Shown here in pieces: positions 12,113 to 29,860 of a stretch of 32,000 nucleotides of DNA (positions within the stretch are counted from its first letter, which is position 1; every line of letters starts with the position of its first letter). The position numbers and the translations under genes are program-made. This stretch comes from Candidatus Iainarchaeum sp. GTDB taxonomy: Archaea > Iainarchaeota > Iainarchaeia > Iainarchaeales > JAZDEL01. Where the stretch lies: the NCBI GenBank assembly GCA_043808785.1, contig JAZDEL010000003.1:51237-83236 (forward strand). The letters are read 5' to 3'. Below the pieces are notes generated by a model, which saw only the letters and a list, made by a program, of their open reading frames with translations, had not been told where the DNA came from and did not search any database.

Positions 12113-12412
12113 TTACCTGCGCTTCCTGCAGAACAGCTTTACCCTGTCCTCGGGCCTTGCGAGTAGTTCACTGCCCCGCACCCTTGCAATGCCGTCGGCG
12201 CATTCAAACTCAAACACCGCATCTTTTTTTGGTATTTTTTTATCCCCCTTCCTTGTTTCAATCACGACCAAATTTTTCGTTTCGTCCACAACCCTTCCCT
12301 CGGCCCCCAGCATTCCCCTGTCGCTGCATTCCTCGACCCGTGCATTGAGCCCTATGAGCTCGTGCGCGGGAAGGTTCCGCCTTGTCGCAATATTTTTTTT
12401 TCCATCCTCCAT
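12113..12412 (-). CDS. rnp1: RNase P protein component 1 (Rpp29/Pop4)
   Basis: HELIGLNARVEECSDRGMLGAEGRVVDETKNLVVIETRKG...RVRGSELLARPEDRVK is the Rpp29 Sm-like fold pattern. It sits in the expected slot between SUI1/L29 and S17. First ATG at 12412, with GAGG upstream (the track start at 12472 is TTG). Confidence 0.85.
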   Translation of the reverse strand: MEDGKKNIATRRNLPAHELIGLNARVEECSDRGMLGAEGRVVDETKNLVVIETRKGDKKIPKKDAVFEFECADGIARVRGSELLARPEDRVKLFCRKRR

Positions 12413-12461
12413 TCCAAAATTCCTCTTTTCATAATTTTTCTTTTTCAAAATTTTTCCCGCA

Positions 12462-12761
12462 TCATGCGTCAATAAACTCTTCCTTATACCCTTCCTGCAG
12501 CAAAATCTTTTTCACATCCCTTTTATGGTCCCCCTGCAGTTCGATTCCGTTTTCCGTCACAGTGCCTCCGCACGCCAGCTTCCTTTTCAGGGCCTTTCCG
12601 AGTTCCTTCGCGTTTGCATCGCTGTCAAACCCCGAGACCGTGGTTACGAACTTGCCGAAGCGCCTCCTTATAACCTTCACCTTTATCTTCTGGCTCTCCT
12701 TAGCGATCTCGCCGCAGACGCACAGGTTCTTCGGCAGGCCGCATTTTTCGCACATGTCCAT
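12462..12761 (-). CDS. sui1: Translation initiation factor SUI1 (aSUI1/eIF1)
   Basis: 99 aa: CGLPKNLCVCGEIAKESQKIKVKVIRRRFGKFVTTVSGFD...LKRKLACGGTVTENGIELQGDHKRDVKKIL is the SUI1 domain. Confidence 0.92.
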   Translation of the reverse strand: MDMCEKCGLPKNLCVCGEIAKESQKIKVKVIRRRFGKFVTTVSGFDSDANAKELGKALKRKLACGGTVTENGIELQGDHKRDVKKILLQEGYKEEFIDA

Positions 12762-12796
12762 TTGCCGCTATTCACCCCTCCAAGTTTCCGTTTTTT

Positions 12797-13063
12797 TTAT
12801 TTTCCCTTTTCCTTAGCCTGTTCCGCTTTCGCCGCTGTGTTTCCGCCCTTCTTCTTCACATTTATTCCCATCTTTTTTTCCTTCAATATCGTAAGTATCC
12901 TTGCGACCATCCTGCGCATGTTCCTGGCTTTTGCCGGCTTCTCCGCACGCGTGCCGGATGCCGCAAGCGCCCTCTCTTTCGCTATGTCCGCGCGAAGGCC
13001 AACGAGCCTTGCCTCGAGTTCCTCGCCCGCAAGGTCGCGCAGTTCGTCAATCTTCCTCGGCAT
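12797..13063 (-). CDS. rpl29: 50S ribosomal protein L29 (uL29)
   Basis: 88 aa: IDELRDLAGEELEARLVGLRADIAKERA...ARNMRRMVARILTILKEK is the uL29 pattern. Lys-rich C-terminal ~22 aa. Confidence 0.9.
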   Translation of the reverse strand: MPRKIDELRDLAGEELEARLVGLRADIAKERALAASGTRAEKPAKARNMRRMVARILTILKEKKMGINVKKKGGNTAAKAEQAKEKGK

Positions 13064-13064
13064 T

Positions 13065-14156
13065 TCACTTCACCTTTTCCGCGGTTTCGGCCTTATCTTC
13101 CGCCTTTTCTTTTTCCGCAGCTTCCTTGCGCGTTTGCGCCCGCGCATGACGCATGCTGCCTCGCGATTCTGCCTTCCCGATTTGAAGCTTCGCTTCAAAT
13201 GGGCGCAATCGGGCATTGCCCAATTCGCGCGGCAGAATGCGCGCATTCGGCTCAAGCCGAACAGCGGCGGCAGCACTAGCCTGCACGTTGTCCTTCCCCC
13301 CGTGCTTTTTCACGTTCTCCTTTTTTTTATCTGCCGAAGCGCCATCTTTTTTCTCCGCCTTCTTTTCGCCTGCGCCGTGCTTCTTTGCCGCCTTCTTGGC
13401 TTCCTTCTCCGCAGCCTCTTTGGCCTCTTCCTTTGCCTTCTTCGCTTCCTCGGCAGCGGTTTCCTCCGCCTCCTTGAGCGATGCGGCCTCGCTTGCCGCC
13501 TTTTCCGCGGCCTCCGCAGCGGCGGACTTCGCCTTCTCAACCGCCTCGTCCCTGTCGTTAAGGATTTTGATAACGTCAATCTTATCGGGGAACGCCGTGT
13601 CCGGCCTCACAATCCTGACCTTTATCCCTATCGCGCCGACTTTCGGGTAAGCCGCGCTCTTTGCATAATCCACAAGCCTTGTCTGCTCGCCGACCTTTTT
13701 CATATAGCCTTCCGCAATGCGCTGGCTTTTCTTCCTCCCGCCCTTGCCCGCGAGTTTCCCCGAAACAACAATCTCAACGCCCTGCGCACCCGCAGCCATT
13801 ATATCCCTAACCGACCTGTAACCCACGCTCCTCCAGGAGAAGCCCCTCTCTATAAGCGCCTTCATCCTGTTCGCCATTGCCATTGCATCGAGTTCCGGCT
13901 TTGTTATTTCCTTAATCTCGATCTGCGGGTTCTCTATGCCGAAGCGCTTGTGTATTGTTTCCGTGAGCTGCTTTATGTTTGCGCCGCTCTTCCCTATCGC
14001 AAGCCCGGGCTTTGTGACGTTCACGATTATCCTCGTCACCATGGGCGTCTTCTCTATCTCGGATTTTGTGAACCCCGCGCGGTCGAGTTCGACCTTGAGG
14101 TACTCCTCGAGCTCCAGCCTTTTGAGGCCCTGTTCTATGAAATGCCTTTCTATCAT
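13065..14156 (-). CDS. rps3: 30S ribosomal protein S3 (uS3) with a ~160-aa C-terminal extension
   Basis: The N-terminal 200 aa is the uS3 KH plus C-terminal domain (TRIIVNVTKPGLAIGKSGANIKQL...GVEIVVSGKLAGKGGRKKSQRIAEGYMKKVG). The tail (nt 13068-13556) is AEKAASEAASLKEAEETAAEEAKKAKEEAKEAAEKEAKK... It includes the structured in-frame insert at 13146-13272. Confidence 0.93.
   Translation of the reverse strand: MIERHFIEQGLKRLELEEYLKVELDRAGFTKSEIEKTPMVTRIIVNVTKPGLAIGKSGANIKQLTETIHKRFGIENPQIEIKEITKPELDAMAMANRMKALIERGFSWRSVGYRSVRDIMAAGAQGVEIVVSGKLAGKGGRKKSQRIAEGYMKKVGEQTRLVDYAKSAAYPKVGAIGIKVRIVRPDTAFPDKIDVIKILNDRDEAVEKAKSAAAEAAEKAASEAASLKEAEETAAEEAKKAKEEAKEAAEKEAKKAAKKHGAGEKKAEKKDGASADKKKENVKKHGGKDNVQASAAAAVRLEPNARILPRELGNARLRPFEAKLQIGKAESRGSMRHARAQTRKEAAEKEKAEDKAETAEKVK
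13163..13242 (-). repeat. Y-shaped nested inverted-repeat element, copy 2 (in frame inside the rps3 tail)
   Basis: On the minus strand the outer stem is GCG-C-ATTCTGCC (13242-13231) / GGCAGAATCGC (13173-13163). Hairpin GCGC-G-AAT T GGGC AAT GCCC G ATTGCGC is at 13230-13203. Hairpin ATTTGAAGC GAA GCTTCAAAT is at 13200-13180. An extra hairpin TTCGGC TTGA GCCGAA lies at 13261-13246. A closing pair GCTGCC/GGCAGC lies at 13274-13269 / 13160-13155. Confidence 0.7.
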
Positions 14157-14162
14157 CGTAAA

Positions 14163-14633
14163 TCACTTCATTTCCCTTGCGAAAATCTCGAGGTGCGCGG
14201 ATTTCCTCTTTCTCCTTTTCCCGGCAATCCTCCCCTGCTTCTGGTAGCTTGCCCTTGCGAAGCCCTGCGAGGCGAACGCGTGCGTTATTATAAGGTTCTT
14301 GCCGTCCATCCCCTTGTAATCCGCGTTAGCCTTCACGCTCTCCAGCAGGGTTATGAAAATCTCGACAGTTCCGTGCGCGTACTTTCCCGTTTTTGTCCCG
14401 CTCACAGCCCTCCCTTTCCTGTGCGGCATTTTCCTCACGTATTTCTTGAGAGGTATGTGCTCCTTGTGCTCGAGTATGTTCCTCATGAACTGCAGCGCCC
14501 TCTCGAGCCTCATGCCCTTTATCTCGCGCATCAACTCTACGGAGTATTTCAGCGAGGCGCGCTGGTTCGCCATGCGCGCGCTTGCGAGCTTATGCTTCCT
14601 CCTTGCCTCTATCTGGTAATCTCTCTTGACCAT
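14163..14633 (-). CDS. rpl22: 50S ribosomal protein L22 (uL22)
   Basis: 156 aa: ASLKYSVELMREIKGMRLERALQFMRNILEHKEHIPLKKY...HLEIFAREM is the archaeal uL22 pattern. Confidence 0.92.
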   Translation of the reverse strand: MVKRDYQIEARRKHKLASARMANQRASLKYSVELMREIKGMRLERALQFMRNILEHKEHIPLKKYVRKMPHRKGRAVSGTKTGKYAHGTVEIFITLLESVKANADYKGMDGKNLIITHAFASQGFARASYQKQGRIAGKRRKRKSAHLEIFAREMK

Positions 14634-18950: not shown

Positions 18951-21125
18951 TTAATGCGTGTTGCCCGAGCCGCACGCCTTCGGTTCGCACTTATGTTTAG
19001 GCATTGAAACCCTTCTTCCCGAGGTTGCCCTGTAAACCATCCAGAGCATTGTGAGGATAAGCACAACAAGCCCGATATTGACCGCGTTCCCGTTCAGCAC
19101 GGCGAATGCCGTCCCCGCAAGCCCTGTGAAGCTGGTTCCGTTCCCCGAACCCGCACCGGAACCCGCGTTGCTGTTTTGGTTCCCGCTTCCCGAACCATTA
19201 TCGCCGTTGCCCGAACCCGAACCGTTATCCGAACCCGCGTTGCTGTTTTGGTTCCCGTTGCCGTAACCCGAACCGTTGTTGTTTTCGTTTTCATTCTCTT
19301 CCTCGGCAGGCCAGTAACCGTTCTCCCCTTCCACAACGCGCGTGTATTTTTCGATTATGGTTTCGCCGTTAACCTCTACCCTGTAAACAACAAACCCTGT
19401 TTCGCGCCCGAGGTTGCTTATCCTCACAACCTTTTCCGCGTAGGTTTGCCGTGGGATGTTGATGGTTTGGGGGAAAACATCAACACCCTCACCAGCAAGT
19501 GTAATTATGGCTGCGGAATCGAAAGGGTTGTCTATTTTCAGTTCAATGTAACCAATGCCGCCCCTTGAATTGTCTATCTCCGCCTGTTCGGGAAAATTAA
19601 AACCAAACCCTGCCGCGCTAAAGTTCGCGGCTGCGTTTGTTTTGTTATTTTTGCCCCCTTTCATGTAAACCTGCACAGCGTTGCTTTTTATTGCGCAGCT
19701 TATGCCCGAACTGAAATGCCCGTTTGCGGTTATGTAAATTGTTCCAGTGTCATCCGCCTTTGCCTCGTTTGCGTAAGTCCAGAACCCTGTGCGGGCGCGC
19801 TCGCCCTTGAGAACAACAGAATCCTTCACATATCCCGAAGCGGAGAACTCTGTTGCATATTCCTCAACCTGCACGGAATCAACATAAAAATTCAGCGCTG
19901 AATTATTTTTCAGGTAAATCTCCGCGTACGCGCTCTCCCCGGCATCGACGCTTACCCCCGCGCGGTTTTCGAAACCGAGTGAGTAGCAATTGCCTTTGGG
20001 AGTGTAGGTGCCGGTGCCGCTGCCTTTGCTCTGCGAAGCACCGGTGCTGTATTCGCCTGTACTCACACTCACATCCTTCCATGAATTATCGCCCGCGTTT
20101 TTGGGTTCGTATGAGGAAGCACTGTACGCGTACTCATAATCTCCGCTCTTCTCCGCAGGCTTATCCTTTGCCTTGCCGCTAACGTGTATCGTGAACTCCG
20201 CTGCCCTAATATCCCCGAGCGAGCAGTTTGTTCCGTCCGTGAACACGCCGCTTACCTTGACATTCGCGCTTATGTCCGCGCTCGACGCGGTGCCGATTGC
20301 CTCGAGCCTTACCTTGATTTCCCTCGTGCTTCCGCTCGGCACAAGTGAATCGTAATCCTTCCCTGTCTCGGTTACATCGAACCCTCCGATGTAAACCGAA
20401 ACGTTCTTTATCGTGAAATTCTTTTTTGAATTATTTTTCACATAAACGGTTGCGTAACCCTTCTCCCCTGCCGTTATGTAGAAATCATCCGCACTCAGCG
20501 CCATCTCGGTGCAGTAAGCGCCCTGCGGATACTTGTAATCGTACCCTGTATATTCCCCGTAACCGACACTGCGCCCCGAACCATATCCTCCGCCGTAACT
20601 TACAGTGTATGTGGGGCCGTAATATGCCGTCCCGCCGCTGTATGCTCCGCTGTAATACCCCCTGTCCGCAGGCCAGTAGTATGCGTTCCCGTAATACACA
20701 TACCCGTAATCGCCAACCCAGTTAGGGTAATAATTCCAGTTCCCGCCCCAGTAGTAATAATTTGGCGCGTAGTAGGGCGAGTAATAATATCCGTAACTCT
20801 CCCCGTACCAGTACCTCTGCCCGTAATAAACAGGCGTGTCCCTGTACCAGTACCTGTTCCCTCCGTAATACCAGCCCGGTTCGTAATTGTAATAATTGCC
20901 CGAGTAATAAACCCTGTAGGGTGTGTCAAAATAGTAATAATTTCCGTAGTGGTATGCGTAATACGGTTCCGAATACGCGCTCCAGTGCCCGCCCGAGAAT
21001 ACCTCTACAGACCAATCATTGTTGTAATATCCGAATGCCCATCCCGCGCTCACGCCTGTTGCAATGAAAAGCAGGGCCAGGCCTGCGAGCGCAATTTTGC
21101 AGAAAATCCCCCAATTGCGGTTCAT
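18951..21125 (-). CDS. Anchored surface protein
   Basis: Domain order: signal peptide, 173-aa Tyr/Gly/Asn-rich region, two Cys-bracketed beta-sandwich-like domains, NPxD domain, Gly/Ser/Asn linker, C-terminal TM anchor. First ATG at 21125 (the track start at 21146 is GTG and abuts the TATA box). MNRNWGIFCKIALAGLALLFIATGVSAG is the signal or anchor. The C-terminus is TGLAGTAFAVLNGNAVNIGLVVLILTMLWMVYR followed by a basic tail. I recognise no family by eye. Confidence 0.8.
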   Translation of the reverse strand: MNRNWGIFCKIALAGLALLFIATGVSAGWAFGYYNNDWSVEVFSGGHWSAYSEPYYAYHYGNYYYFDTPYRVYYSGNYYNYEPGWYYGGNRYWYRDTPVYYGQRYWYGESYGYYYSPYYAPNYYYWGGNWNYYPNWVGDYGYVYYGNAYYWPADRGYYSGAYSGGTAYYGPTYTVSYGGGYGSGRSVGYGEYTGYDYKYPQGAYCTEMALSADDFYITAGEKGYATVYVKNNSKKNFTIKNVSVYIGGFDVTETGKDYDSLVPSGSTREIKVRLEAIGTASSADISANVKVSGVFTDGTNCSLGDIRAAEFTIHVSGKAKDKPAEKSGDYEYAYSASSYEPKNAGDNSWKDVSVSTGEYSTGASQSKGSGTGTYTPKGNCYSLGFENRAGVSVDAGESAYAEIYLKNNSALNFYVDSVQVEEYATEFSASGYVKDSVVLKGERARTGFWTYANEAKADDTGTIYITANGHFSSGISCAIKSNAVQVYMKGGKNNKTNAAANFSAAGFGFNFPEQAEIDNSRGGIGYIELKIDNPFDSAAIITLAGEGVDVFPQTINIPRQTYAEKVVRISNLGRETGFVVYRVEVNGETIIEKYTRVVEGENGYWPAEEENENENNNGSGYGNGNQNSNAGSDNGSGSGNGDNGSGSGNQNSNAGSGAGSGNGTSFTGLAGTAFAVLNGNAVNIGLVVLILTMLWMVYRATSGRRVSMPKHKCEPKACGSGNTH

Positions 21126-21147
21126 ATAATAACTTCTGCCGAACACC

Positions 21148-21155
21148 TATTTAAA
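21148..21155 (-). promoter_or_regulatory. TATA box (TTTAAATA) of the Tyr-rich surface protein gene
   Basis: It is centred about 26 nt upstream of ATG 21125, which implies a leaderless transcript. Confidence 0.6.
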
Positions 21156-21184
21156 CCTTTCCTTTCTTCACGGTAATGAGTGAA

Positions 21185-21916
21185 TTAGCCCTTCATTTTG
21201 CCTTTTCCGCGCGTTATAACCAGCACAGCGGCGATTATGAACAGCACAAAAGGCGCGGGTATTTCAGGTGCATCGAGCGGGTTATGGGCGTCCGCTATTG
21301 TGAAATAGGTTGTGGCTTCGTTGTTCCAGGTTTGCGGGTCCTGTTCGACGCGGGCGGCTGATGCGCCTGTACAGCCACCAGTATGTTCAGCCTCCCTTAT
21401 TTCATCAATAAAAACCCTGAGCCTGTAGGTGCCTTCCCTGATTTTTATTTCGTTGTCTCCTGCAGATACTGCAGCGGGATTTAAGACCCTTATGCAAGGG
21501 CGGGGGATGCCGTTATTTTCAGGGAAACCCCTTTCTTCGCCAGTTTCGAAATATTCCTGCTTCATTTCCAATATTGTAAACCTTTCAGGCTGGAGGCCGG
21601 GCGGGGGCCCCCCCTCGCTGGCATGCGTTGCAGCATCTATGAGTTCCGCACTTATATCCGCGCATAAAGGCTTGCCTGACACATTTTTTATTTGCAGGTT
21701 TATATACATCCAGTCTCCGTAGAAAAAGATGCCGTCTTTATCCCCAAGCCCCCCGGTGCCGACACAATCAGGGAATGTGTCTCCATTGCCACCGCCGTCA
21801 CTAAGCTCGAACTCAGTTATCGCAAGCAGGTCGGGAGGGTTGACGGCTGTTGCTGCGGTGGCCAGTGCAGGCAACAGCAGCATGCACACAAAAGCCAAAC
21901 GCGGAAAATTGCCCAT
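21185..21916 (-). CDS. Small secreted protein with a C-terminal TM anchor (243 aa)
   Basis: ATG at 21916 gives MGNFPRLAFVCMLLLPALATAATA, a signal peptide. The C-terminus PEIPAPFVLFIIAAVLVITRGKGKMKG is a Pro-rich motif, then a TM, then a basic cluster. Function unknown. Confidence 0.7.
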   Translation of the reverse strand: MGNFPRLAFVCMLLLPALATAATAVNPPDLLAITEFELSDGGGNGDTFPDCVGTGGLGDKDGIFFYGDWMYINLQIKNVSGKPLCADISAELIDAATHASEGGPPPGLQPERFTILEMKQEYFETGEERGFPENNGIPRPCIRVLNPAAVSAGDNEIKIREGTYRLRVFIDEIREAEHTGGCTGASAARVEQDPQTWNNEATTYFTIADAHNPLDAPEIPAPFVLFIIAAVLVITRGKGKMKG

Positions 21917-21947
21917 GGCAAAACACCGCATGAATAAGGGCTCGGGA

Positions 21948-21955
21948 TTATTTAA
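21948..21955 (-). promoter_or_regulatory. TATA-like box (TTAAATAA) of the 243-aa anchored protein gene
   Basis: It is centred about 35 nt upstream of ATG 21916. The upstream ATG at 21931 would lie before the predicted transcription start. Confidence 0.4.
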
Positions 21956-22056
21956 GCCTTTTGTGCCTAAGGTGCGGCTGGTTTTTTGGGCTTTGTGGAG
22001 CGGCAGTGCCGCGCTTTGCGGGCTTATAAGCAGTTTGCAGCGCTGAAATTATTGCG

Positions 22057-25000
22057 CTACTTCCTCGCCTGGATGTAGAGAATCATCCCGACAAGGATTA
22101 TTATGATCACAACAAGCCCGAGCACAACCGCATTCTCGGATAGCATTGCAAGCCCGGTTGCTATGAAGTCCTGCTGTGCAGGCTCCTCAATCGTGAGCGT
22201 GAGCGCCCTCTCGAGGTGCTTTCCCCCACCCTCCACAATCATTTTCCCAGTGAACGTGCCAGTTCCCTTGGGCTTGACGCTTGCGGACAGCGAAACACTG
22301 TCTCCCGCGGCAATGGTCTTGGTGCCGCCCGTTATTTCCCAATCCTCGGGGAAACCTTCAAGCGAGAACTTAACCTCGACGCTGCCTGCAGACTCGTTTG
22401 TAACCGTAACCGCGACATTTCCGCTGTCGCCTATGCTCATGCTTGTGGGGAAACTGCCAACGCTTATTTCAGTGGCTTCCTCCTCGTTGCCCTCCCCAGC
22501 ACCCTGCCCGCTGTTGAATGTTATCTTGGTTGTCCTGTTGCCTATATTGCACCCTGAAATTTCCGTGCTGTAAATAACATATGCAACATCGCGGTCGGAA
22601 GTTATGTCAATGCTCTTCGTGGTTGTGCTGTTCCTCCCCACAGTGAAAGAATCCTGGCTTATTGTGAGCCCCGCCCCCGAAAGCGTTATCTCAGCTCCCT
22701 TATCCAGCGGGTTTGTCACAGTGAACTGTATTGTGCCCGAGTTTCCGCTGAACGCGACCTCGTTGGGTACGGTGAGCGTGAAATCCGTGCAATCGTTGCC
22801 TGTTCCGCTGCCGTTATCGCTGCCGCCGTTATCGTAGCGGTCCTTTACCTTAACGCCGAAGTCCTCGTAGAGGCCGCTGAAGTAGCAGTAATCCCCGTTG
22901 GAGAGCCTGCCGCTTACCTTGAGCCTTGCCTTCCCCGTGCTTGTCGAGGAAACGCCGCTTCCGAAGAACTTAACCCTTATCTCCTTCCTGTTTCCGCTGT
23001 AAATGTAATCCCCGCCGTAATCATCAACGCTCGGGTAAATATTCGCGCTGAAGGAGCCGTAGAGCTTCGCTATTTCAACATCACTTATCGTGAACCTGCT
23101 GCCAGAGTTGTTCCTCACATAGAAGCTTTCAATCGTGCTCCCGTCCTCGTAAACCTCGACTGTGTGAGTGTCAAGGTAAATGTTGTGGCAGTTCGCGCTT
23201 TCCGAGCTTGTGCCCGTGTTCATTACCTTTATGCTCGTGCTCTCGTAAATATCCCGGTAATTGCAGTATGCGTTGCCGCTGAAGTGCCCCCTTGCCCTGA
23301 GCGTGAGCGTGCCCCAGGTTGTCGAGGAAACGCTGTCCGCGTCTATTTCAACCTCGACCGTGATGTAATCGCCGTCATAGATTGTCCTGCCGGAATAATC
23401 CGAAGAATCCAAAACCCTTGCATCAAACTTAGAGCCGCTTGTTTCGTAGGCCTCAACGCCCTCAAGGTAGAATGTCCTGCCCGAGTTGTTCCCGAGGCGG
23501 TAAGTGAATGTGTCGGTTGTGCCTTCCTTGATTTCCTTTGTGCCCGTAACCCACTCTATCTGGTTGCACTCGCTGTTTGAATAATCATAATAATACTCAT
23601 CATTTACCGTGAGAGTGAAACTCTCCGTGCCTATGTCGCCGTAATTGCAGCCCTTTCCGCTTTCCGTGAAATAGCCCGCAACCCTGACGTTAACAGTCCC
23701 TGATTCTGTTCCGCTTACGTTGTAAGTGTCCACGTTTACGTTGAAATATCCCGTTTCCCCGGCGCCTATGTACGTGTCGTACCCGCCCGCCGTAGCGTTA
23801 AAGTACGGGTTGCTTTCCGTAACCTCAATCCCCCTGACCCCGAACCCTTCGCCGCTGTTGTTCTTTATATAGAACTGCAGGGTTTCGTTGTCCCTGCTTT
23901 CCTCAAGTGTCCTGCCCCCTACCTGAATATCTATGTTGCCGCACTGCGGGTAGTCAGGATAGCTGGCTGTGTCATAGACGGTAACATAAAAGTACTTTGC
24001 GGGGATGCTGCCCGTGCAGTTTCCGCTGACATTAACCTTTGCGCGGCCTTTGCTTGTGCCGCTTACGGAATCTCCGCTTACCGTGACGTCAAACGATTTT
24101 GTGCTGCCTGCCGGCACGCTAAGCGTGCTGCCGTAGCCGGAGACCGAGAAGCTGCCGTACTCCCTCGAAACGCTTATGCCGGCATTGAACGCCTTGCTGC
24201 CGCTGTTGGTTATGCTGAACGTGCGCGACTGCGTGCTGCCCTCGTTTATGTAAAAATCCTGAGTCGAGACGCTTATGTCCCCGCAGCCGAGGTATGCCGG
24301 AGGCGCGCCCTTGTCCTTGGCCGTAACGCTGAATTTCGCGTATCCTATGTCCCTGTAATCGCAGATTACTCCCGCGCCGTCGAAGCGGCCCTTAACCATG
24401 GCATAGCTGTGGATTATGGTCTCGTTGTCCACATTGCCCGCGGTAACGTAAAAATCAACCGTTGTGTATCCGCCGTTTGCCGCAACCCTCTTGTTTGCCG
24501 CTGTCTTGTTGGTAAAACTGAGCGGTATAGTGCTGTCGTAATCGTATGCGTACGCATCCTCAATTATGAAATCATAGCCGTTGTTGTTCCTGATGCCGAA
24601 GTACACAGTCCTGCTCGTGCCCTCGTCCATTGAAAAGTCCCCGGGCGTGAGGCTTATGTCCGAGCATTTGGGCGTTGCGGGCTTCTGCTGCCCCTGCGCG
24701 ACATTTGCCGTCAGTATCTTGTATTCGCTGCCGTAACTTACCTGGTTCGCAAACTTAAGGTATATAAAATCCGTGTAATACCCGAATTCCGAGCTTGCCG
24801 CACCGGGCAGGTCGATATTGAACTCCTGGCAACCGTTCACCTTAATGCTCGCGGAAGCCTCCCTGTAGCCGAAATCCTTTTTGGTTCCGTCGGGCCTTAC
24901 GCCGTAGCTCTGCAGTTTTCCGTAAACCGTTTCGTAAAGGTTAGGGGTGCTGCCGTCGGAATCGACGCATACCCTCATTTCAATCGCTGCATAATCGCCG

Positions 25001-25188
25001 TCGCGGAAGGTTACTATGCTGCCTTTCTCGCCCGTGCTCTTGTTCACGAATTTCGCGTCATCGAGCCTTATGCTCAGCCCGCTCGCGGCGTTGGCAATGC
25101 CTGTAAAAACCAGAAGCGCCAGCGCAATAATCCCGAATGCAAAGAGTTTGTTGTTCACGTTATCACTCACAAGTGGTAATATTTTCAC
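22057..25188 (-). CDS. Large anchored surface protein (1043 aa) with six Cys-starting tandem beta-sandwich-like repeats (five of the full NNSG type) plus a CARDB-like domain and a C-terminal TM anchor
   Basis: The hydrophobic signal is NNKLFAFGIIALALLVFTGIANA. Repeats start at C175, C302, C416, C541, C667 and C800. The C-terminus is ATGLAMLSENAVVLGLVVIIIILVGMILYIQARK. There is no ATG at the 5' end. Candidate starts are GTG 25188 (TATA-proximal), 25170 or 25158. Confidence 0.8.
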   Translation of the reverse strand: MKILPLVSDNVNNKLFAFGIIALALLVFTGIANAASGLSIRLDDAKFVNKSTGEKGSIVTFRDGDYAAIEMRVCVDSDGSTPNLYETVYGKLQSYGVRPDGTKKDFGYREASASIKVNGCQEFNIDLPGAASSEFGYYTDFIYLKFANQVSYGSEYKILTANVAQGQQKPATPKCSDISLTPGDFSMDEGTSRTVYFGIRNNNGYDFIIEDAYAYDYDSTIPLSFTNKTAANKRVAANGGYTTVDFYVTAGNVDNETIIHSYAMVKGRFDGAGVICDYRDIGYAKFSVTAKDKGAPPAYLGCGDISVSTQDFYINEGSTQSRTFSITNSGSKAFNAGISVSREYGSFSVSGYGSTLSVPAGSTKSFDVTVSGDSVSGTSKGRAKVNVSGNCTGSIPAKYFYVTVYDTASYPDYPQCGNIDIQVGGRTLEESRDNETLQFYIKNNSGEGFGVRGIEVTESNPYFNATAGGYDTYIGAGETGYFNVNVDTYNVSGTESGTVNVRVAGYFTESGKGCNYGDIGTESFTLTVNDEYYYDYSNSECNQIEWVTGTKEIKEGTTDTFTYRLGNNSGRTFYLEGVEAYETSGSKFDARVLDSSDYSGRTIYDGDYITVEVEIDADSVSSTTWGTLTLRARGHFSGNAYCNYRDIYESTSIKVMNTGTSSESANCHNIYLDTHTVEVYEDGSTIESFYVRNNSGSRFTISDVEIAKLYGSFSANIYPSVDDYGGDYIYSGNRKEIRVKFFGSGVSSTSTGKARLKVSGRLSNGDYCYFSGLYEDFGVKVKDRYDNGGSDNGSGTGNDCTDFTLTVPNEVAFSGNSGTIQFTVTNPLDKGAEITLSGAGLTISQDSFTVGRNSTTTKSIDITSDRDVAYVIYSTEISGCNIGNRTTKITFNSGQGAGEGNEEEATEISVGSFPTSMSIGDSGNVAVTVTNESAGSVEVKFSLEGFPEDWEITGGTKTIAAGDSVSLSASVKPKGTGTFTGKMIVEGGGKHLERALTLTIEEPAQQDFIATGLAMLSENAVVLGLVVIIIILVGMILYIQARK

Positions 25189-25212
25189 TATAACTAATTG
25201 CGCATCCTTTTC

Positions 25213-25220
25213 TTTATAAA
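25213..25220 (-). promoter_or_regulatory. TATA box (TTTATAAA, palindromic) of the 1043-aa surface protein gene
   Basis: It is centred about 28 nt upstream of GTG 25188. Confidence 0.55.
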
Positions 25221-25271
25221 CCTTTCGTTTTGTTGAGTGAAGGAGTTAATTCGTCAAGTGACGGGGTTAAT

Positions 25272-25284
25272 GCGCGTTTGCGCC
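25272..25284. repeat. GC mini-hairpin motif gcgcgtttgcgcc, third exact copy
   Basis: The same 13-mer occurs at 8083-8095 and 13128-13140. Here it lies in the 3' UTR of the DUF457-like gene and is followed by a second ttgcgcc. Related hairpins are cgcgcaaagcgcg at 18616-18628 and roughly 22007-22018 (ccgcgctttgcgg). Confidence 0.75.
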
Positions 25285-25316
25285 ATTGCGCCACGCCATT
25301 GCCCCCGCCAATAATA

Positions 25317-25814
25317 CTATTGTGAGCAGTATGGTTGATTTTTCCGTATCCGCGAAATGTAGGCAAAAACAGCAATGACAAAGCAGATGCTGCAAAAAAG
25401 GTAAATCGCAAGCGGCGAAATTGCGCCATAGAATGGGTTGATTTCCAGAGGGTAAAATGGCTGCATATCAGGATAGAGCGGCGCATCCAGCAGAACATGG
25501 AGGTAAACGCCGAGTAGCGCAGAGGCGCACACCTTCAGCACCGAGGATTCCTGCCCAAGCCTGAAAAACGCCATTATTTGCCTGATTGGTTTCCTCAGCG
25601 CATACATAACCAAGCCCAGGGTCAGCCCCACAACCGTTGCACCTAGGAACGAATGAAAAAATCCGTGCAGAATGAAAGAGCCAGACATCAGGTTGAGAAG
25701 AGGCTCAATGTCAAGAATCACACCTGCAACCAAAAAAGCGGGTAAATCAATAAGCGAAAACAGCAACAGCCCGAACAGCAGGGAGGGGCCGAGGTGGAAG
25801 GGCGTGAGCGGCAT
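25317..25814 (-). CDS. Polytopic membrane protein, DUF457/YdjM-like putative metal-dependent hydrolase
   Basis: 165 aa with about 5 TM segments. Motifs are MPLTPFHLGP at the N-terminus, HGFFHSFLG mid-protein and YLHVLLDAP. These resemble the His/Asp motifs of the YdjM (PF04307-type) family. The assignment is from memory of motifs only. Confidence 0.55.
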   Translation of the reverse strand: MPLTPFHLGPSLLFGLLLFSLIDLPAFLVAGVILDIEPLLNLMSGSFILHGFFHSFLGATVVGLTLGLVMYALRKPIRQIMAFFRLGQESSVLKVCASALLGVYLHVLLDAPLYPDMQPFYPLEINPFYGAISPLAIYLFCSICFVIAVFAYISRIRKNQPYCSQ

Positions 25815-25825
25815 GGCGCACCCGT

Positions 25826-26587
25826 TCAGCTAAGCTCCGATATCAAATTTACTTCAGCAACTTTTGTGGCACCTTGGAACACATCTTTTTTTACCGTTAT
25901 TCTTTTTTCATAATCAATCCAAAAAACTTCTTTTTTAGTGGTTGTGCCATTTTCTATTATTTTATACTCTACTTTGAATGCTTTTCTCCCATTTATTAGA
26001 GGCGTTTCGACAACCTCAAAACGATCTTTATAATAGAACTCTTTGTCGCCAATCTTTGATTCTATAGGCCTCTCCATCTCAAAGTGGTCAGTTAATGAAA
26101 GCATCCACTGCCCAAAGAGAATACTCCCAATCTGCAAGTCAATATCGGCACTTCCACTGCCTTCTGTTATTGTTTTGCCACCCTGTATTCTTTTCAGGAA
26201 ATAGCCAGTTTCAGTATCAAAGTAATATGTTGCCTGACGGCCCTCCGTCCTGGCATCGCCAGTTGGCGTTGTGTATTTAGCCTTGTAGTCCTCAGAGATG
26301 ACATAATACTTCTTGCCCCTTATGCGCTCCATATCTTTAACGACAAACACTCTTGTTCCAGCCCCGCCCCAGCCAGGCATGGTTTCTTTGTATTCAAACT
26401 TATCACCTACTTTAAAAGAAGGCGACACATTCCCGTTTGGCGGCAAAACCTTAGTTGTTTCGAACTTAACTCCATTGCCACCTGATGGCGCATAATTTTC
26501 CACGTCTGCGCATCCGCTGATAAGTAACATTAAAGCTAAGAGAAAGCCTGCCAAGGTAGATTTCCCAGAAAGCATAGGACAACCCAT
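25826..26587 (-). CDS. Putative lipoprotein (253 aa), low-GC gene
   Basis: The N-terminus MGCPMLSGKSTLAGFLLALMLLISGCADVEN contains a lipobox-like ISGC. The rest has beta-rich composition. Hand-sampled GC is about 33-42 percent, against about 58 percent in the r-protein region. No family recognised. Confidence 0.7.
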   Translation of the reverse strand: MGCPMLSGKSTLAGFLLALMLLISGCADVENYAPSGGNGVKFETTKVLPPNGNVSPSFKVGDKFEYKETMPGWGGAGTRVFVVKDMERIRGKKYYVISEDYKAKYTTPTGDARTEGRQATYYFDTETGYFLKRIQGGKTITEGSGSADIDLQIGSILFGQWMLSLTDHFEMERPIESKIGDKEFYYKDRFEVVETPLINGRKAFKVEYKIIENGTTTKKEVFWIDYEKRITVKKDVFQGATKVAEVNLISELS

Positions 26588-26611
26588 ACATATTACGAAA
26601 AAAATTTAATA

Positions 26612-29600
26612 TTAACAGTCAGATAAGTGCCACTGTGCGACATTTATGGGCCAGTAGCCTTTGCCTATCATGTAATCTGTTGGCTCACTGTCTGGTTCTG
26701 GCCCTTCGGTGTCTATCGAACCGTCTGCCGAGGTATACCATCCTTGCCAGCGATACCCTTTTTCTATTGGTTTGCCAAAATCGCTCCCATAGTGTGGCAT
26801 GTAGGAATACTCAAATGGAACGACATGGTAACCTTTATTCTCAAAATATGCTTCCGCTTGCGAGAGAGTTGAAAATGTCTTTGTATTATCTACCGAACTG
26901 TCTTTGTTTTCGCACCCCCACAGCCCGGCATAATAGCACAGGCCGATGCACGGGTTTGGCATATCGGGGCCTACGCCGCCATTATCGCCGCCTGTAGGTT
27001 CGACATAAAGCTTTGCTGTTGCGCTTTCCGATTTTGAACCGCTTGTCACATTCAGATAAACCGTTATGTTTCTCTGGCTTGAACTATCGTTAGTGCATGT
27101 GACACGATATTCATCGCCATAGTCGTTAGTTTCGCAGTCGCTATATGCGGAGAGGCTCCAGCCGTAGTCATACTGCCCAGATCCACCATATGCATACGCA
27201 GTAAATGTCTGGCTCTCGCCCGACCAAACAATAGCGCTTTCCGGCTCTATTGAAACGCTCAAATCCTGCCCGCTATTGCCTGGCTCGACATAAAGCTTTG
27301 CGCTTGCACTTCCCGATTTTGAGCCGCTTGTAACATTCAGGTAAATTGTCCTGTTCATTGTGCTTGAGCTTTCATTTGTGCACGTGACACGGAACTCACG
27401 GTCGTAGTCGTCTTTTTGGCAGTTATCATACGAGGACAGGCGCCAGTCATAGGAGTATCCGCCGTCGCCACCTGAAACATTCGCATAGAACTTTTGCTCT
27501 TCGCCCGATTCGACTGTGGCGCTCCCGGGCTCAATCGAAACATCTAATTCACCTGTGCTCCCGCCCTCAATCGTAAAAGTGCCGCTTTCGGCTGAAGAAC
27601 ACTGCCCGTCATCGTCGCAAACGAATGCATAATAGTTCTTAGTTCCAGAGTCGCCCGAAGAAGTTCCATAATCGCAATAACTTGGGCTGTAGCTTGAATA
27701 GCCGTCTGCGCTGCACCACGTGCCGCCCGAGCAGCCGCCGCTATCGTGGGAACTGGTTTTGCATATAAACATTTTTGTCCTGTCGTTGCCAGGCAGCGAT
27801 GCATTGATATCCTGCGCAACTTGTGCAACAGGCGCAGCAACCGCCCCGACAAACTCGCGTACAAGCGGCAGTCCTATAACCACATTCCCTATTGCCTGCA
27901 CTACGTTGCCTGCGGGGGCGGGCTGAACTGCCGAATATTCAGGGTCGGACCAGTGAACCTCGAAGTTCACGGAATCGCCGGGCTCGACAGGGTTTGGGTA
28001 AACATTGACATATTCAATATAAGGCTCGTTGTTACCGCCGCCCTCGTTTTGTACATACACCGTGAACTGCCTCTCACCGATATCGCCGTATGAGCAGTAC
28101 TTTCCGCCATCGAAGCGCCCGCTCACTTTCACATACGCCGTTCCGCTCTCGTCACGATCGACAGAGTATGCCTCAACCCTAACCTCATAATTGCCGCTTC
28201 CATGTGAATTTATGCTCCCGTCATAGGAGCCTGTTCCGTTCGCTCCAAAGTAATTTCCGCCGCTTACCACTCCAACATCCACATTCTCGACATAAAACCT
28301 CTCGCCCGAATTGTTCCCGTAACTGAACTGGCGGTATTTTGTTTCGCCCTCGTTCAAGGTTACGTCATCAGCATTTATGTAAATGTCACCGCATCGCGGC
28401 TCTCCGGTGGAATTGCCGTCAACATAAATAGCCCTTGTTGTCTGGTCAGTCAGGCCGCCGCTGTCCATTACCGAGAGCCTTATTGTTTTGTTGCCGCCTG
28501 TGGAATAATAGTGTGCTTCGGCCTTATATTGCACATATTCAGTGTCCCAATAGCCATCGTCCTCCCAATCCCACCTTACTTGAAGTTGGTCGGCTGTATC
28601 TTCCGCATCATAAGAATTATTGGCATAAACCTCAAATCTCGTGCTTGTGTTTCCGGATGTCGGGTTAACGTCGAAAACCGCGTGAGGCTGCGTGTTTCCG
28701 CCGCTCCCGCCGGCAGCCACATATATTTTTGAAGTGTCTCTTGCAGTTCTCATGGGACCTTCAATCTCAGTTAGCCTGAATGTAATATCTAAAGCTAACT
28801 GATTTGAGGTCGGGTTGGTGCAAGTGAGGGTACAGCCTCTCAAGTCCGTGCAGAATTCAGCAGTGCAATAGTCATATGGCATAGTCCAATGTGGGGCGGC
28901 AAAAACCCCATCTATGGTTCCGGAAACTACGGCAAAAAAGTCCTGGCTCCCGCCAGATTCAATAAAAGTCTCTTCGGGGAAAAGCTGGACTGTTAATTCG
29001 CCGCTACCGCCCTGAACATTGATGCTTGCATCATCTATTGAGTAAAAATCTAATGTCCCTTGTTTTGCAACTCCTGCTGCAAAAACATACTGCCCGTTGG
29101 TGATTGGCGGGTGGTTGCTTGGGATCTCAAAAATCATGCCCACCGTGCCTTCGTCGTAAGGGGGAATGTACAAATTTGCAGGCAGAGTTGTGCGGATGTA
29201 CTGGGGCGTATTTGTCCAACTAGGGTAGAAATAGAGGTCTTGCTCTGGCGAAAGCATTACTAGATAAAAATCAACTGGCCTCTCAGCTTCTGGATTTGTG
29301 AGTCCTATAAAGAGTCCAATCAATTCGTTTTGTTTATATGTGCCGCTATTTGTTGTAACTGTTACTGTCGGTCCCGCACGGGCAGGCAATTTCCGCATGT
29401 CCTTAAGCGTTATTGTTTTGTTGCTTGTCTTTACCTCGCCAGATAGCAAGTTATATGTGGTTTGCCCGCTGGCGGTCTTGGTCGTGGGTGGCATTACGGT
29501 TTCGATGTCCCGTGTAATTGCCCTTACAGTTCCTCCATCAGCCATCGGCGTGTATATCGCCACCGCACCTGTTCCTGTGATGTTCGTTGTAGCCTTGTTA

Positions 29601-29860
29601 TCTTTTACGGGTTCGGGCACTTTTATCGGCTCATAAATTTTACTGGGGGCATTCACTTCCACAACCGCAGCCTTTGCAACCGCCGGTTGCGCCACCAATG
29701 CGCGGGGCTCGCTGTCGGCCACTGCCGGGACCTTATGCAGTGTTAGCTGCAGTGCGCCTGGTGCGGCGACAGCAAAAGAGAATGCCAGAAATGAAAGCAA
29801 AAAAAGTACGGAAAAAAGCGGCAATAAATGCCTCTTTCCTGCAGGCAAGGAAGCGCGCAT
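26612..29860 (-). CDS. Large secreted multidomain protein (1082 aa) with no C-terminal TM
   Basis: Domain order: signal peptide, unknown N-terminal region, Ig-like domain, PKD-like domain, one Cys-bracketed domain, Cys-rich module, two tandem Ig-like repeats, unknown C-terminal domain. The signal is MRASLPAGKRHLLPLFSVLFLLSFLAFSFAVAAPGA. The PKD-like segment is AVFDVNPTSGNTSTRFEVYANNSYDAEDTADQLQVRWDWEDDGYWDT...IRLSVMDSGG. The Cys-bracketed domain spans C490 to C589. Confidence 0.8.
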   Translation of the reverse strand: MRASLPAGKRHLLPLFSVLFLLSFLAFSFAVAAPGALQLTLHKVPAVADSEPRALVAQPAVAKAAVVEVNAPSKIYEPIKVPEPVKDNKATTNITGTGAVAIYTPMADGGTVRAITRDIETVMPPTTKTASGQTTYNLLSGEVKTSNKTITLKDMRKLPARAGPTVTVTTNSGTYKQNELIGLFIGLTNPEAERPVDFYLVMLSPEQDLYFYPSWTNTPQYIRTTLPANLYIPPYDEGTVGMIFEIPSNHPPITNGQYVFAAGVAKQGTLDFYSIDDASINVQGGSGELTVQLFPEETFIESGGSQDFFAVVSGTIDGVFAAPHWTMPYDYCTAEFCTDLRGCTLTCTNPTSNQLALDITFRLTEIEGPMRTARDTSKIYVAAGGSGGNTQPHAVFDVNPTSGNTSTRFEVYANNSYDAEDTADQLQVRWDWEDDGYWDTEYVQYKAEAHYYSTGGNKTIRLSVMDSGGLTDQTTRAIYVDGNSTGEPRCGDIYINADDVTLNEGETKYRQFSYGNNSGERFYVENVDVGVVSGGNYFGANGTGSYDGSINSHGSGNYEVRVEAYSVDRDESGTAYVKVSGRFDGGKYCSYGDIGERQFTVYVQNEGGGNNEPYIEYVNVYPNPVEPGDSVNFEVHWSDPEYSAVQPAPAGNVVQAIGNVVIGLPLVREFVGAVAAPVAQVAQDINASLPGNDRTKMFICKTSSHDSGGCSGGTWCSADGYSSYSPSYCDYGTSSGDSGTKNYYAFVCDDDGQCSSAESGTFTIEGGSTGELDVSIEPGSATVESGEEQKFYANVSGGDGGYSYDWRLSSYDNCQKDDYDREFRVTCTNESSSTMNRTIYLNVTSGSKSGSASAKLYVEPGNSGQDLSVSIEPESAIVWSGESQTFTAYAYGGSGQYDYGWSLSAYSDCETNDYGDEYRVTCTNDSSSQRNITVYLNVTSGSKSESATAKLYVEPTGGDNGGVGPDMPNPCIGLCYYAGLWGCENKDSSVDNTKTFSTLSQAEAYFENKGYHVVPFEYSYMPHYGSDFGKPIEKGYRWQGWYTSADGSIDTEGPEPDSEPTDYMIGKGYWPINVAQWHLSDC
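26993..27553 (-). repeat. Tandem duplication (2 x 285 nt) encoding two Ig-like domains
   Basis: aa 770-861 and aa 865-956 of the 1082-aa protein align at roughly 60 percent identity (LxVSIEPxSAxVxSGExQxF...YRVTCTNxSSS...YLNVTSGSKSxSAxAKLYVEP). Long near-identical DNA runs occur around 27000 and 27288. Confidence 0.85.

Follow-up and report, generated by a model that had tools for sequence, protein, structure and literature searches.

The stretch analysed here, 32,000 nucleotides of a Candidatus Iainarchaeum sp. contig (JAZDEL010000003.1; hereafter the window), encodes on its minus strand a surface protein with an extremely tyrosine-rich N-terminal region. This region is coding, conserved, N-terminal, extracellular by topology, present family-wide and without known relatives. 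Judged from its conservation and from structure models, it probably, with modest confidence on our part, forms the ordered aromatic binding head of a lineage-specific surface protein conserved across Iainarchaeia (Diapherotrites, DPANN). In the complete protein, a signal peptide and the Tyr-rich head are followed by three immunoglobulin (Ig)-like domains and a Gly/Ser/Asn spacer, and a transmembrane anchor with a basic tail forms the C-terminus.

Composition of the Tyr-rich region

The Tyr-rich stretch is located at positions 20514-21032 of the minus strand and corresponds to residues 39-211 in the GTG numbering of the open reading frame (ORF) 18951..21146 (minus strand, 731 codons counted from GTG). 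Unless GTG numbering is stated, residues are numbered here from ATG 21125; the Tyr-rich region then comprises residues 28-204 and begins at the mature N-terminus. The 173 residues of the stretch include 55 Tyr (32%), 30 Gly, 12 Ser, 11 Asn, 10 Pro and 9 Trp, and both the Tyr count and the coordinates given by an earlier, sequence-only reading of this DNA are correct. The same reading described the stretch as having almost no charged or aliphatic residues, which holds for Ile, Leu and Met, all absent, but is slightly overstated for charged residues, of which there are 18 (10%). Lys and Arg are very scarce in the head.

As background, the other long minus-strand ORFs of the window (16 entries of a mechanically compiled list, not in every case verified to be genes) contain 3.6% Tyr, against which the binomial probability of the Tyr-rich stretch is about 6e-36. 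Tyr peaks at 39 per 100 amino acids (aa); elsewhere in the six frames, no stop-free stretch exceeds 12. No DNA tandem repeats are found in the region by Tandem Repeats Finder, and self-alignment of its two halves (score 95, shuffles 88 +/- 10) reveals no internal repeat beyond composition, so that tandem or internal repeats are ruled out as the source of the Tyr-rich composition. The composition is therefore real and extreme and does not stem from a recent repeat expansion. Aromatic residues of the head display a weak autocorrelation at lags 7-8, [GS]Y[GS] motifs occur four times in the 178 residues of the Tyr-rich part, and none of the 11 N-x-S/T sequons of the whole protein lies inside it.

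Selection and position-specific conservation

In a codon alignment with the homologous locus L001, the ratio of non-synonymous to synonymous substitution rates (dN/dS) of the Tyr-rich region is about 0.20. Non-synonymous differences (as a proportion, pN) are rarer in the Tyr-rich region than in the Ig-domain part, whether the comparison is with L001 (0.079 and 0.109, respectively), L002 (0.229 and 0.345) or L003 (0.241 and 0.361). From the 55 Tyr of the window protein, 49, 38 and 33 stay Tyr in three homologues, and the Tyr-rich frame is open in more than 45 homologues.

In an alignment of the real heads 16 columns are invariant, 8 of these with a residue other than Tyr, and 36 are conserved to at least 80%; identity to the window protein is 43%. 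Ten residue-shuffled sets reach only 0-1 invariant columns (0 non-Tyr), 6-14 columns at the 80% level and 25-30% identity, whereas the adjacent first Ig-like domain (Ig1) has 4 invariant columns (4 non-Tyr), 12 columns at the 80% level and 33% identity. Invariant among the 28-37 aligned heads are P54, Y56, Y65, R71, Y78, G84-W85-Y86, Y123, Y124, W130, P134, W136, Y140, Y145, G194 and C205. The head consensus reads GYxxSDFYFEvYSGxxYxYxxTPYTYxYxxYYYFDYP[FY]RVYSxGxYxYYxPGWYxFxxYWxxxP… in its first part and …YYxYYPxxYYYYxGxWxYxPxWxxxYGPxYYGxYYxPP…TLxGQxYxPxQxAxC in its second. Gaps are restricted to few sites of the head; among the 129 gap-poor columns 37 have a Tyr majority, with Phe as the commonest substitute, and the core of about 130 columns combines an average of 27% Tyr with invariant Trp, Pro, Gly and Arg. 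By these alignments no other part of the protein is as strongly conserved as the Tyr-rich head.

Family and distribution

A profile of the Tyr-rich region, searched exhaustively against 1.84 billion representative proteins (cut-off E 1e-3), retrieved 27 protein clusters (50% identity), nearly all of them 560-750 aa long and matching at residues ~20-170. The head contains 24-36% Tyr in 29 of 29 sequences, mostly against 2-7% in the rest of the protein; the composition is thus conserved in orthologues. The closest homologues are P0002 (82% identity), P0003 (48%, listed at NCBI as a hypothetical protein of 'Candidatus Diapherotrites archaeon') and P0004 (43%). Family members share the same downstream architecture, and all named ones are annotated as 'hypothetical' or 'uncharacterized'. 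Word-indexed protein searches with the head alignment and with the full-length alignment added nothing new, the low-complexity words having probably swamped the index.

A degenerate DNA pattern based on invariant residues (Y-[FY]-[DNHY]-x3-R-x6-Y-x2-[FY]-x2-GWY) detected 31 loci in GTDB species genomes. Eighteen of them are true members, all archaeal, and the precisely labelled ones belong to Candidatus Iainarchaeum or Diapherotrites, including the complete genome of archaeon GW2011_AR10 (AR10). About 14 further members are present on metagenome contigs. The remaining, bacterial loci are nearly all chance matches, several with in-frame stops. An ORF in a metagenome-assembled genome of Tannerella sp. 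(L022, 2298-3869, plus strand, 524 codons), with a Gly/Tyr/Trp run (…GGYYGGYYGGYYGGW…) between Ser/Thr-rich flanks, is likewise a chance match and was rejected as a family member, being an unrelated GGYY low-complexity protein. Tyr-rich tips, present in 27 clusters, in 18 species genomes and on about 14 metagenome contigs, are the norm among related lineages, and the uniqueness implied by the sequence-only reading does not hold. The string YYFDYP[FY]RVY…PGWY may serve as a compact sequence marker for the Iainarchaeia lineage.

The family gene was recovered once per locus. Its fixed position, immediately flanked by RtcB and the L3 operon in most family genomes, points to a single conserved orthologue and not to a mobile or multicopy adhesin.

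Parts of the head and predicted structure

Localised gaps and fixed columns resolve the 173 residues into a conserved core, two clade-specific inserts and a conserved junction. Structure was predicted with AlphaFold2 (AF2), run with a four-sequence alignment and then with 27 family sequences over residues 24-322; confidence is given as the predicted local distance difference test (pLDDT). Predicted strands of the head cover residues 38-44, 47-51, 58-60, 63-66, 70-74, 77-81, 84-87, 123-126 and 129-132, and their strand-turn period of 7-8 residues agrees with the autocorrelation lags of the aromatic residues.

Core block 1 (residues 28-87; 20865..21044, minus strand) is almost gap-free, includes the invariant P54, Y56, Y65, R71, Y78, G84, W85 and Y86, and is described by the motif GYxxSDFYFEvYSGxxYxY..TPYTYxY..YYYFDYP[FY]RVYSxGxYxYYxPGWY; seven short strands are predicted in it (pLDDT 58-73). 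It is followed by insert 1 (YGGNRYWYRDTPVYYGQRYWYGE, approximately residues 88-110; 20796..20864, minus strand), a clade-specific segment of approximate boundaries at an indel hotspot of the family, where other members possess different inserts (pLDDT <50). The gap-free core block 2 (approximately residues 111-153; 20667..20795, minus strand), with the motif YxYYPxxYYYYxGxWxYxPxWxxxYGPxYYGxYYxP and the invariant Y123, Y124, W130, P134, W136, Y140 and Y145, is modelled as two strands and a doubtful helix at a pLDDT of ~60-73 that drops to ~46. Insert 2 (DRGYYSGAYSGGTAYYGPTYTVSYGGGYGSGRSV, approximately residues 154-187; 20565..20666, minus strand) is a clade-specific low-complexity spacer rich in Gly, Tyr and Ser, absent from P0004 and most members and partial in P0003, with a pLDDT of 34-38. 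The junction (residues 188-205, GYGEYTGYDYKYPQGAYC; 20511..20564, minus strand) connects the head with Ig-like domain 1; the whole family shares G194 and C205 as invariant residues, and TGYxYKYPQ is invariant in the clade of the window. In disordered or prion-like sequences composition is kept, positions are not, and length is variable throughout: the core does not behave in this way, only the two inserts do, and these two (~88-110 and ~154-187) alone look like true low complexity.

Cysteine pairs are found in the heads of several homologues. A CxxC precedes YxYYP in P0008, P0010, P0014, P0017 and P0025, and a PCxxC follows YYYP in P0011, P0012 and P0027; the window protein has no CxxC pair within its Tyr-rich core. 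The recurrence of the pair at fixed loop sites suggests a disulfide-stapled turn.

Readings of the Tyr-rich head

In the reading that we prefer, the core would adopt an ordered, aromatic structure rich in beta-hairpins at the tip of an Ig-domain stalk and would display many Tyr and Trp side chains that bind a conserved partner, held through aromatic stacking and hydrogen bonds of Tyr hydroxyl groups. Candidates for this partner are another copy of the head protein, another component of the envelope or surface layer (S-layer), or a glycan; between head and stalk, the Gly/Tyr/Ser insert would provide a flexible spacer. The slower evolution of the head relative to the stalk, together with the status of the gene as a single orthologue under a conserved promoter, favours a conserved partner, e.g. 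through self-association or another envelope component, over a fast-changing host receptor. A bolder form of this proposal, which we put forward tentatively and consider doubtful, sees in the core a previously unseen fold, a small extracellular beta structure made largely of tyrosine ladders inside and on the surface, braced by Trp and Pro, that serves as a class-wide head for recognition or assembly.

Several observations weigh against an ordered binding head. Tyr-rich alignments inflate apparent conservation, an effect that the shuffled sets and the non-Tyr invariant columns mitigate and do not remove. AF2 with four sequences models the head at a pLDDT of ~20-38, and with 27 sequences the core rises to 58-73, i.e. 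to only moderate confidence. Matches of the AF2 model including Ig1 in Foldseek cover Ig1 only, without any fold match for the head. Moreover, nothing in the window points to the binding partner, and sequence conservation does not prove a globular fold, since a conserved array of short motifs could behave alike.

That the Tyr-rich frame is not translated at all, owing to a downstream start or to the use of another frame, is hardly credible. Such a reading can draw on an ATG and a GTG just past the region (residues 215 and 236 in GTG numbering, 208 and 229 in ATG numbering), on a GTG within it at residue 150, and on other frames that are also open across it. Yet the frame is maintained in the homologues with an excess of synonymous over non-synonymous change, the extracellular Ig domains need an upstream signal peptide, and a conserved promoter is located just before ATG 21125. 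The low dN/dS, the lower pN and the retained Tyr dispose of the wrong-frame and downstream-start alternatives raised in the sequence-only reading, and non-translation is close to refuted. It is also improbable, in our estimate, that the head is a disordered, composition-driven sticky tip engaged in non-specific adhesion, dityrosine cross-linking or the formation of amyloid or condensates, a view in line with the resemblances pointed out in the sequence-only reading. The extreme Tyr/Gly/Asn/Pro composition without Ile, Leu or Met speaks for such a tip, as do the low AF2 confidence with a shallow alignment, the truly variable Gly/Tyr/Ser low complexity of residues 154-187 with its [GS]Y[GS] motifs, and the Tyr-rich precedents among Eimeria wall proteins (PMC4776368) and the coat proteins CotC and CotU (PMC7944565). 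Against it stand a position-specific conservation above that of folded Ig domains, Trp, Pro, Arg and Gly that are invariant at fixed positions, the confinement of indels to few sites, the prediction of the core as beta-hairpins with a deeper alignment, the lack of repeat structure, and the absence of any peroxidase, laccase or tyrosinase gene among the eight genes annotated at 17.3-31.4 kb of the 32 kb. Position-by-position conservation, localised indels and predicted hairpins thus speak against a disordered tail as the principal account of the head; low-complexity adhesive or amyloid-like behaviour is possible for the two inserts, and dityrosine cross-linking is conceivable, though these findings do not favour it.

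Two further explanations concern what the head contacts. The protein itself could be the S-layer lattice protein, its Tyr-rich head making the lattice contacts, which we regard as unlikely. Its architecture parallels that of archaeal S-layer glycoproteins, the gene is single-copy, class-wide and located beside the ribosomal operon with a strong conserved promoter, and the highest conservation in the head is as expected for self-contacts. The reading is weakened by a preprint on prokaryote-wide S-layer prediction, which assigns the role in Iainarchaeota to a different protein of 1039 aa, A0A2G9N319 (10.1101/2024.05.28.596244, Table S1). Alternatively, and with rather little probability in our judgement, the head could be the host- or substrate-specific adhesin tip of an episymbiotic DPANN cell, directed to a host cell, a polysaccharide or a mineral surface. 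For this argue its distal position on a stalk whose length, by estimate and not by measurement, is roughly 15-30 nm, the prevalence of Tyr and Trp in carbohydrate- and protein-binding sites, and the clustering of further surface-protein genes beside the gene in the clade of the window. Host-recognition tips, however, are usually fast-evolving and variable in copy number, while this head is the slowest-evolving part of a single-copy protein, and the Pfam and PDB profile searches gave no match to a carbohydrate-binding or adhesin family.

Hardly any cell-surface protein of DPANN archaea has been characterised, although envelope assembly and any contact with other cells must depend on such proteins. 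A class-wide orthologue with a fixed genomic position and a ~30% Tyr domain as its most conserved part constitutes a clean, testable target in this respect. The head could prove to be an envelope or attachment module specific to Iainarchaeia, and its structure would show how a domain is built from so much tyrosine, a matter of interest for protein design and for minimalist Tyr-based binding surfaces. If the core is indeed an unseen fold, it would represent a new domain family and a natural 'tyrosine-only' binding surface of a key envelope protein, with S-layer docking or partner-cell contact as example roles.

Gene start and promoter

Translation most likely starts at ATG 21125, resulting in a protein of 724 aa, rather than at GTG 21146: a conserved TATA box lies immediately next to the GTG, and the equivalent Met is the first residue of all homologues. 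The ATG start replaces the GTG of the sequence-only reading, and the Tyr-rich stretch still directly follows the signal peptide. The latter comprises residues 1-27 (MNRNWGIFCKIALAGLALLFIATGVSA; 21045..21125, minus strand), with n-, h- and c-regions of a Sec-type signal read by eye, is kept in all homologues, and is modelled by AF2 as a helix at residues 4-26.

The sequence just upstream of the ORF reads AAAGGTTTAAATAGGTG…TTATTATATG. It contains TTTAAATA (21148..21155, minus strand), which by the general archaeal promoter consensus we take to be a near-consensus TATA box behind a transcription factor B recognition element (BRE); the BRE is purine-rich, and the TATA box is conserved in the alignment of upstream regions. 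The TATA box lies ~26 nt upstream of ATG 21125, a spacing that fits a leaderless mRNA and suggests a leaderless or near-leaderless transcript. Just upstream of BRE and TATA box an inverted repeat (TTCACTCATTACCGTGAAG; 21166..21184, minus strand) occurs as a single copy in the window. The orthologues in L001, L002/L004, L003 and AR10 (L032/L046) are preceded by the same repeat, TTCACTNATTACSGTGAA, with at most one mismatch, and it is a candidate regulator-binding site of the promoter.

Together these elements form a promoter block of ~60 nt (window 21125-21190, minus strand; furthermore L001 9942, L002 2606, L003 4952 and L032 5549), composed of a TTCACT[C/A]ATTAC[C/G]GTGAA inverted repeat, the BRE, TTTA[A/T]ATA, GCAGCA and TATTATA. 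It is conserved even between the window and AR10, whose proteins share only ~32% identity. L002 and L003 have lost the ATG behind the TATA box, their coding start lying ~70-100 nt further on. Rfam and sigma-70/terminator scans of 18.5-21.4 kb detected nothing relevant.

Ig-like domains, spacer and anchor

Ig-like domain 1 (residues 205-316; 20178..20513, minus strand) is bounded by Cys205 and Cys301 and modelled at a pLDDT of ~95 with the 27-sequence alignment. Foldseek against PDB matches it to Ig-like, cohesin and PapD-like beta sandwiches (E down to 2e-6, ~110-140 columns, corresponding to Ig1). Ig-like domain 2 (residues 380-489; 19659..19988, minus strand), bounded by Cys380 and Cys477, is an AF2 beta sandwich (pLDDT 57-74) paralogous to the repeats of a neighbouring gene at 22057-25188 (p1043, 1043 aa; E 2e-13). 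Ig-like domain 3 (residues 508-599; 19329..19604, minus strand; AF2 strands, pLDDT 64-78) aligns with the corresponding domain of the same neighbour. The Gly/Ser/Asn-rich spacer (residues 600-665; 19131..19328, minus strand) carries 4 N-x-S/T sequons, is modelled at a pLDDT <50 and differs in length among homologues.

The C-terminal anchor (18951..19130, minus strand) combines the conserved TG[FL]xxLxxNAxxxG motif with a hydrophobic helix (666-698) and a basic cytoplasmic tail, up to the stop codon; AF2 models a helix at 666-702 followed by the basic tail. The combination of motif, transmembrane helix and basic tail is present in the whole Tyr-rich family and in the paralogue p1043 (22057-22170, minus strand), and the motif may be a lineage-specific sorting or anchoring signal. 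Neither a PGF-CTERM nor any other NCBIfam match (E <=0.01) was obtained for the full protein, the C-terminal anchor included. The AF2 domain order, ending in the C-terminal helix and basic tail, places the Tyr-rich part at the membrane-distal end. Signal peptide and AF2 topology bear out the placement proposed in the sequence-only reading, directly after the signal peptide and distal to the membrane on an anchored archaeal surface protein.

Genomic neighbourhood

Downstream of the Tyr-rich gene the archaeal L3 gene heads a ribosomal-protein operon, and the genes of P0002, P0003 and P0004 are all located just upstream of L3-L4-L23-L2. The distance from the Tyr-rich gene to L3 is ~370 nt in the window; in L001, the contig of the closest relative, toxin-antitoxin-type genes (DUF3368/UPF0175, PIN) and small ORFs are found between the two (12362-14231, plus strand). 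Upstream, the window encodes a 248-aa secreted/anchored protein, the 1043-aa Ig-repeat protein, a YdjM-like membrane protein, a 253-aa protein, a 1082-aa PKD-containing protein and RtcB. The 1043-aa neighbour possesses the paralogous Ig-like part and the same anchor motif, without a Tyr-rich head. Among the family genomes recovered, the block of secreted and membrane protein genes between RtcB and the Tyr-rich gene (21185-29860, minus strand) was seen only in the clade of the window, where these extra genes have been inserted, and its 253-aa protein carries a lipobox-like LISGC.

The RtcB of the window is a plain protein of 476 aa. In AR10, a 1001-aa ORF upstream of the family gene (L032 2444-5449, plus strand) matches RtcB only over its last ~390 residues, which is compatible with an RtcB that contains an intein or is extended in some other way. 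All eight genes annotated at 17.3-31.4 kb are co-oriented on the minus strand, and the GC skew is negative throughout the window (1-32000), cumulating to -6.5.

Comparison with known systems

None of 28 heads matches Pfam, and among PDB sequences a profile search reached no significant hit, the top-ranking ones being cell-wall-binding repeat proteins at E 6-10. A literature search on tyrosine-rich archaeal, DPANN or S-layer proteins likewise found no description of such a head. The statement of the sequence-only reading that no archaeal surface protein with this feature has been described survives these searches: Pfam, NCBIfam, PDB and literature are empty, and the members themselves are 'hypothetical'.

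Archaeal S-layer glycoproteins, e.g. of Haloferax volcanii, combine arrays of Ig-like domains with a C-terminal membrane anchor. The window protein resembles them in its signal peptide, tandem Ig-like sandwiches, sequon-bearing low-complexity spacer, and C-terminal hydrophobic helix with basic tail. It differs in that no sequence homology was detected and that it is without a PGF-CTERM signal, and we know of no S-layer protein with a ~30% Tyr head.

Domains of the FUS-like [G/S]Y[G/S] type and high-glycine-tyrosine keratin-associated proteins are eukaryotic and intracellular or keratin-associated. They share the Gly/Tyr/Ser composition of insert 2 (154-187), whereas the archaeal core is rich in Tyr, Trp and Pro at fixed positions and [GS]Y[GS] motifs are scarce in the head. 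Choline-binding and clostridial cell-wall-binding repeats (CW_binding_1, PF01473) resemble the head as modelled in being short, aromatic-rich (Tyr/Trp, 'GW.Y'-type) beta-hairpin modules of surface proteins, and they bind ligands via aromatic side chains, as is proposed for the head; such proteins (4nby, 4nc0) are the only PDB sequences touched by the head profile, at E 6.1-9.5 and thus not significantly. In contrast to them, 0 of 28 members match PF01473 at E <=1, the head lacks a tandem repeat of ~20 residues, and its Tyr content is far higher.

Oocyst and sporocyst wall proteins of Eimeria and Toxoplasma are Tyr-rich, extracellular and cross-linked (PMC4776368), and the Tyr-rich coat proteins CotC and CotU of B. 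subtilis assemble into high-mass forms (PMC7944565). The archaeal head shares with both groups the extracellular location and an unusually high Tyr content, for which dityrosine chemistry is the classical use (PMC4776368; PMC7944565). Oxidative cross-linking is theirs, while the archaeal head is conserved site by site and sits on a membrane-anchored Ig stalk; there is no homology, and no oxidase was found near the archaeal gene among the eight genes at 17.3-31.4 kb. The extracellular loop 3 of Bacteroidota BamA is enriched in Tyr, Gly and Asn, a phylum-wide composition of unknown function (PMC12578637). It thereby resembles the archaeal head in location and in the same enriched residues, but it is a bacterial beta-barrel loop of 38 residues, flexible and therefore invisible in cryo-electron microscopy (PMC12578637), whereas the archaeal head is a position-conserved domain of ~130 columns at the tip of a protein. 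The window protein as such is of a known kind, an archaeal surface protein that is secreted, built with Ig domains and anchored at its C-terminus; its head domain is undescribed and compositionally exceptional.

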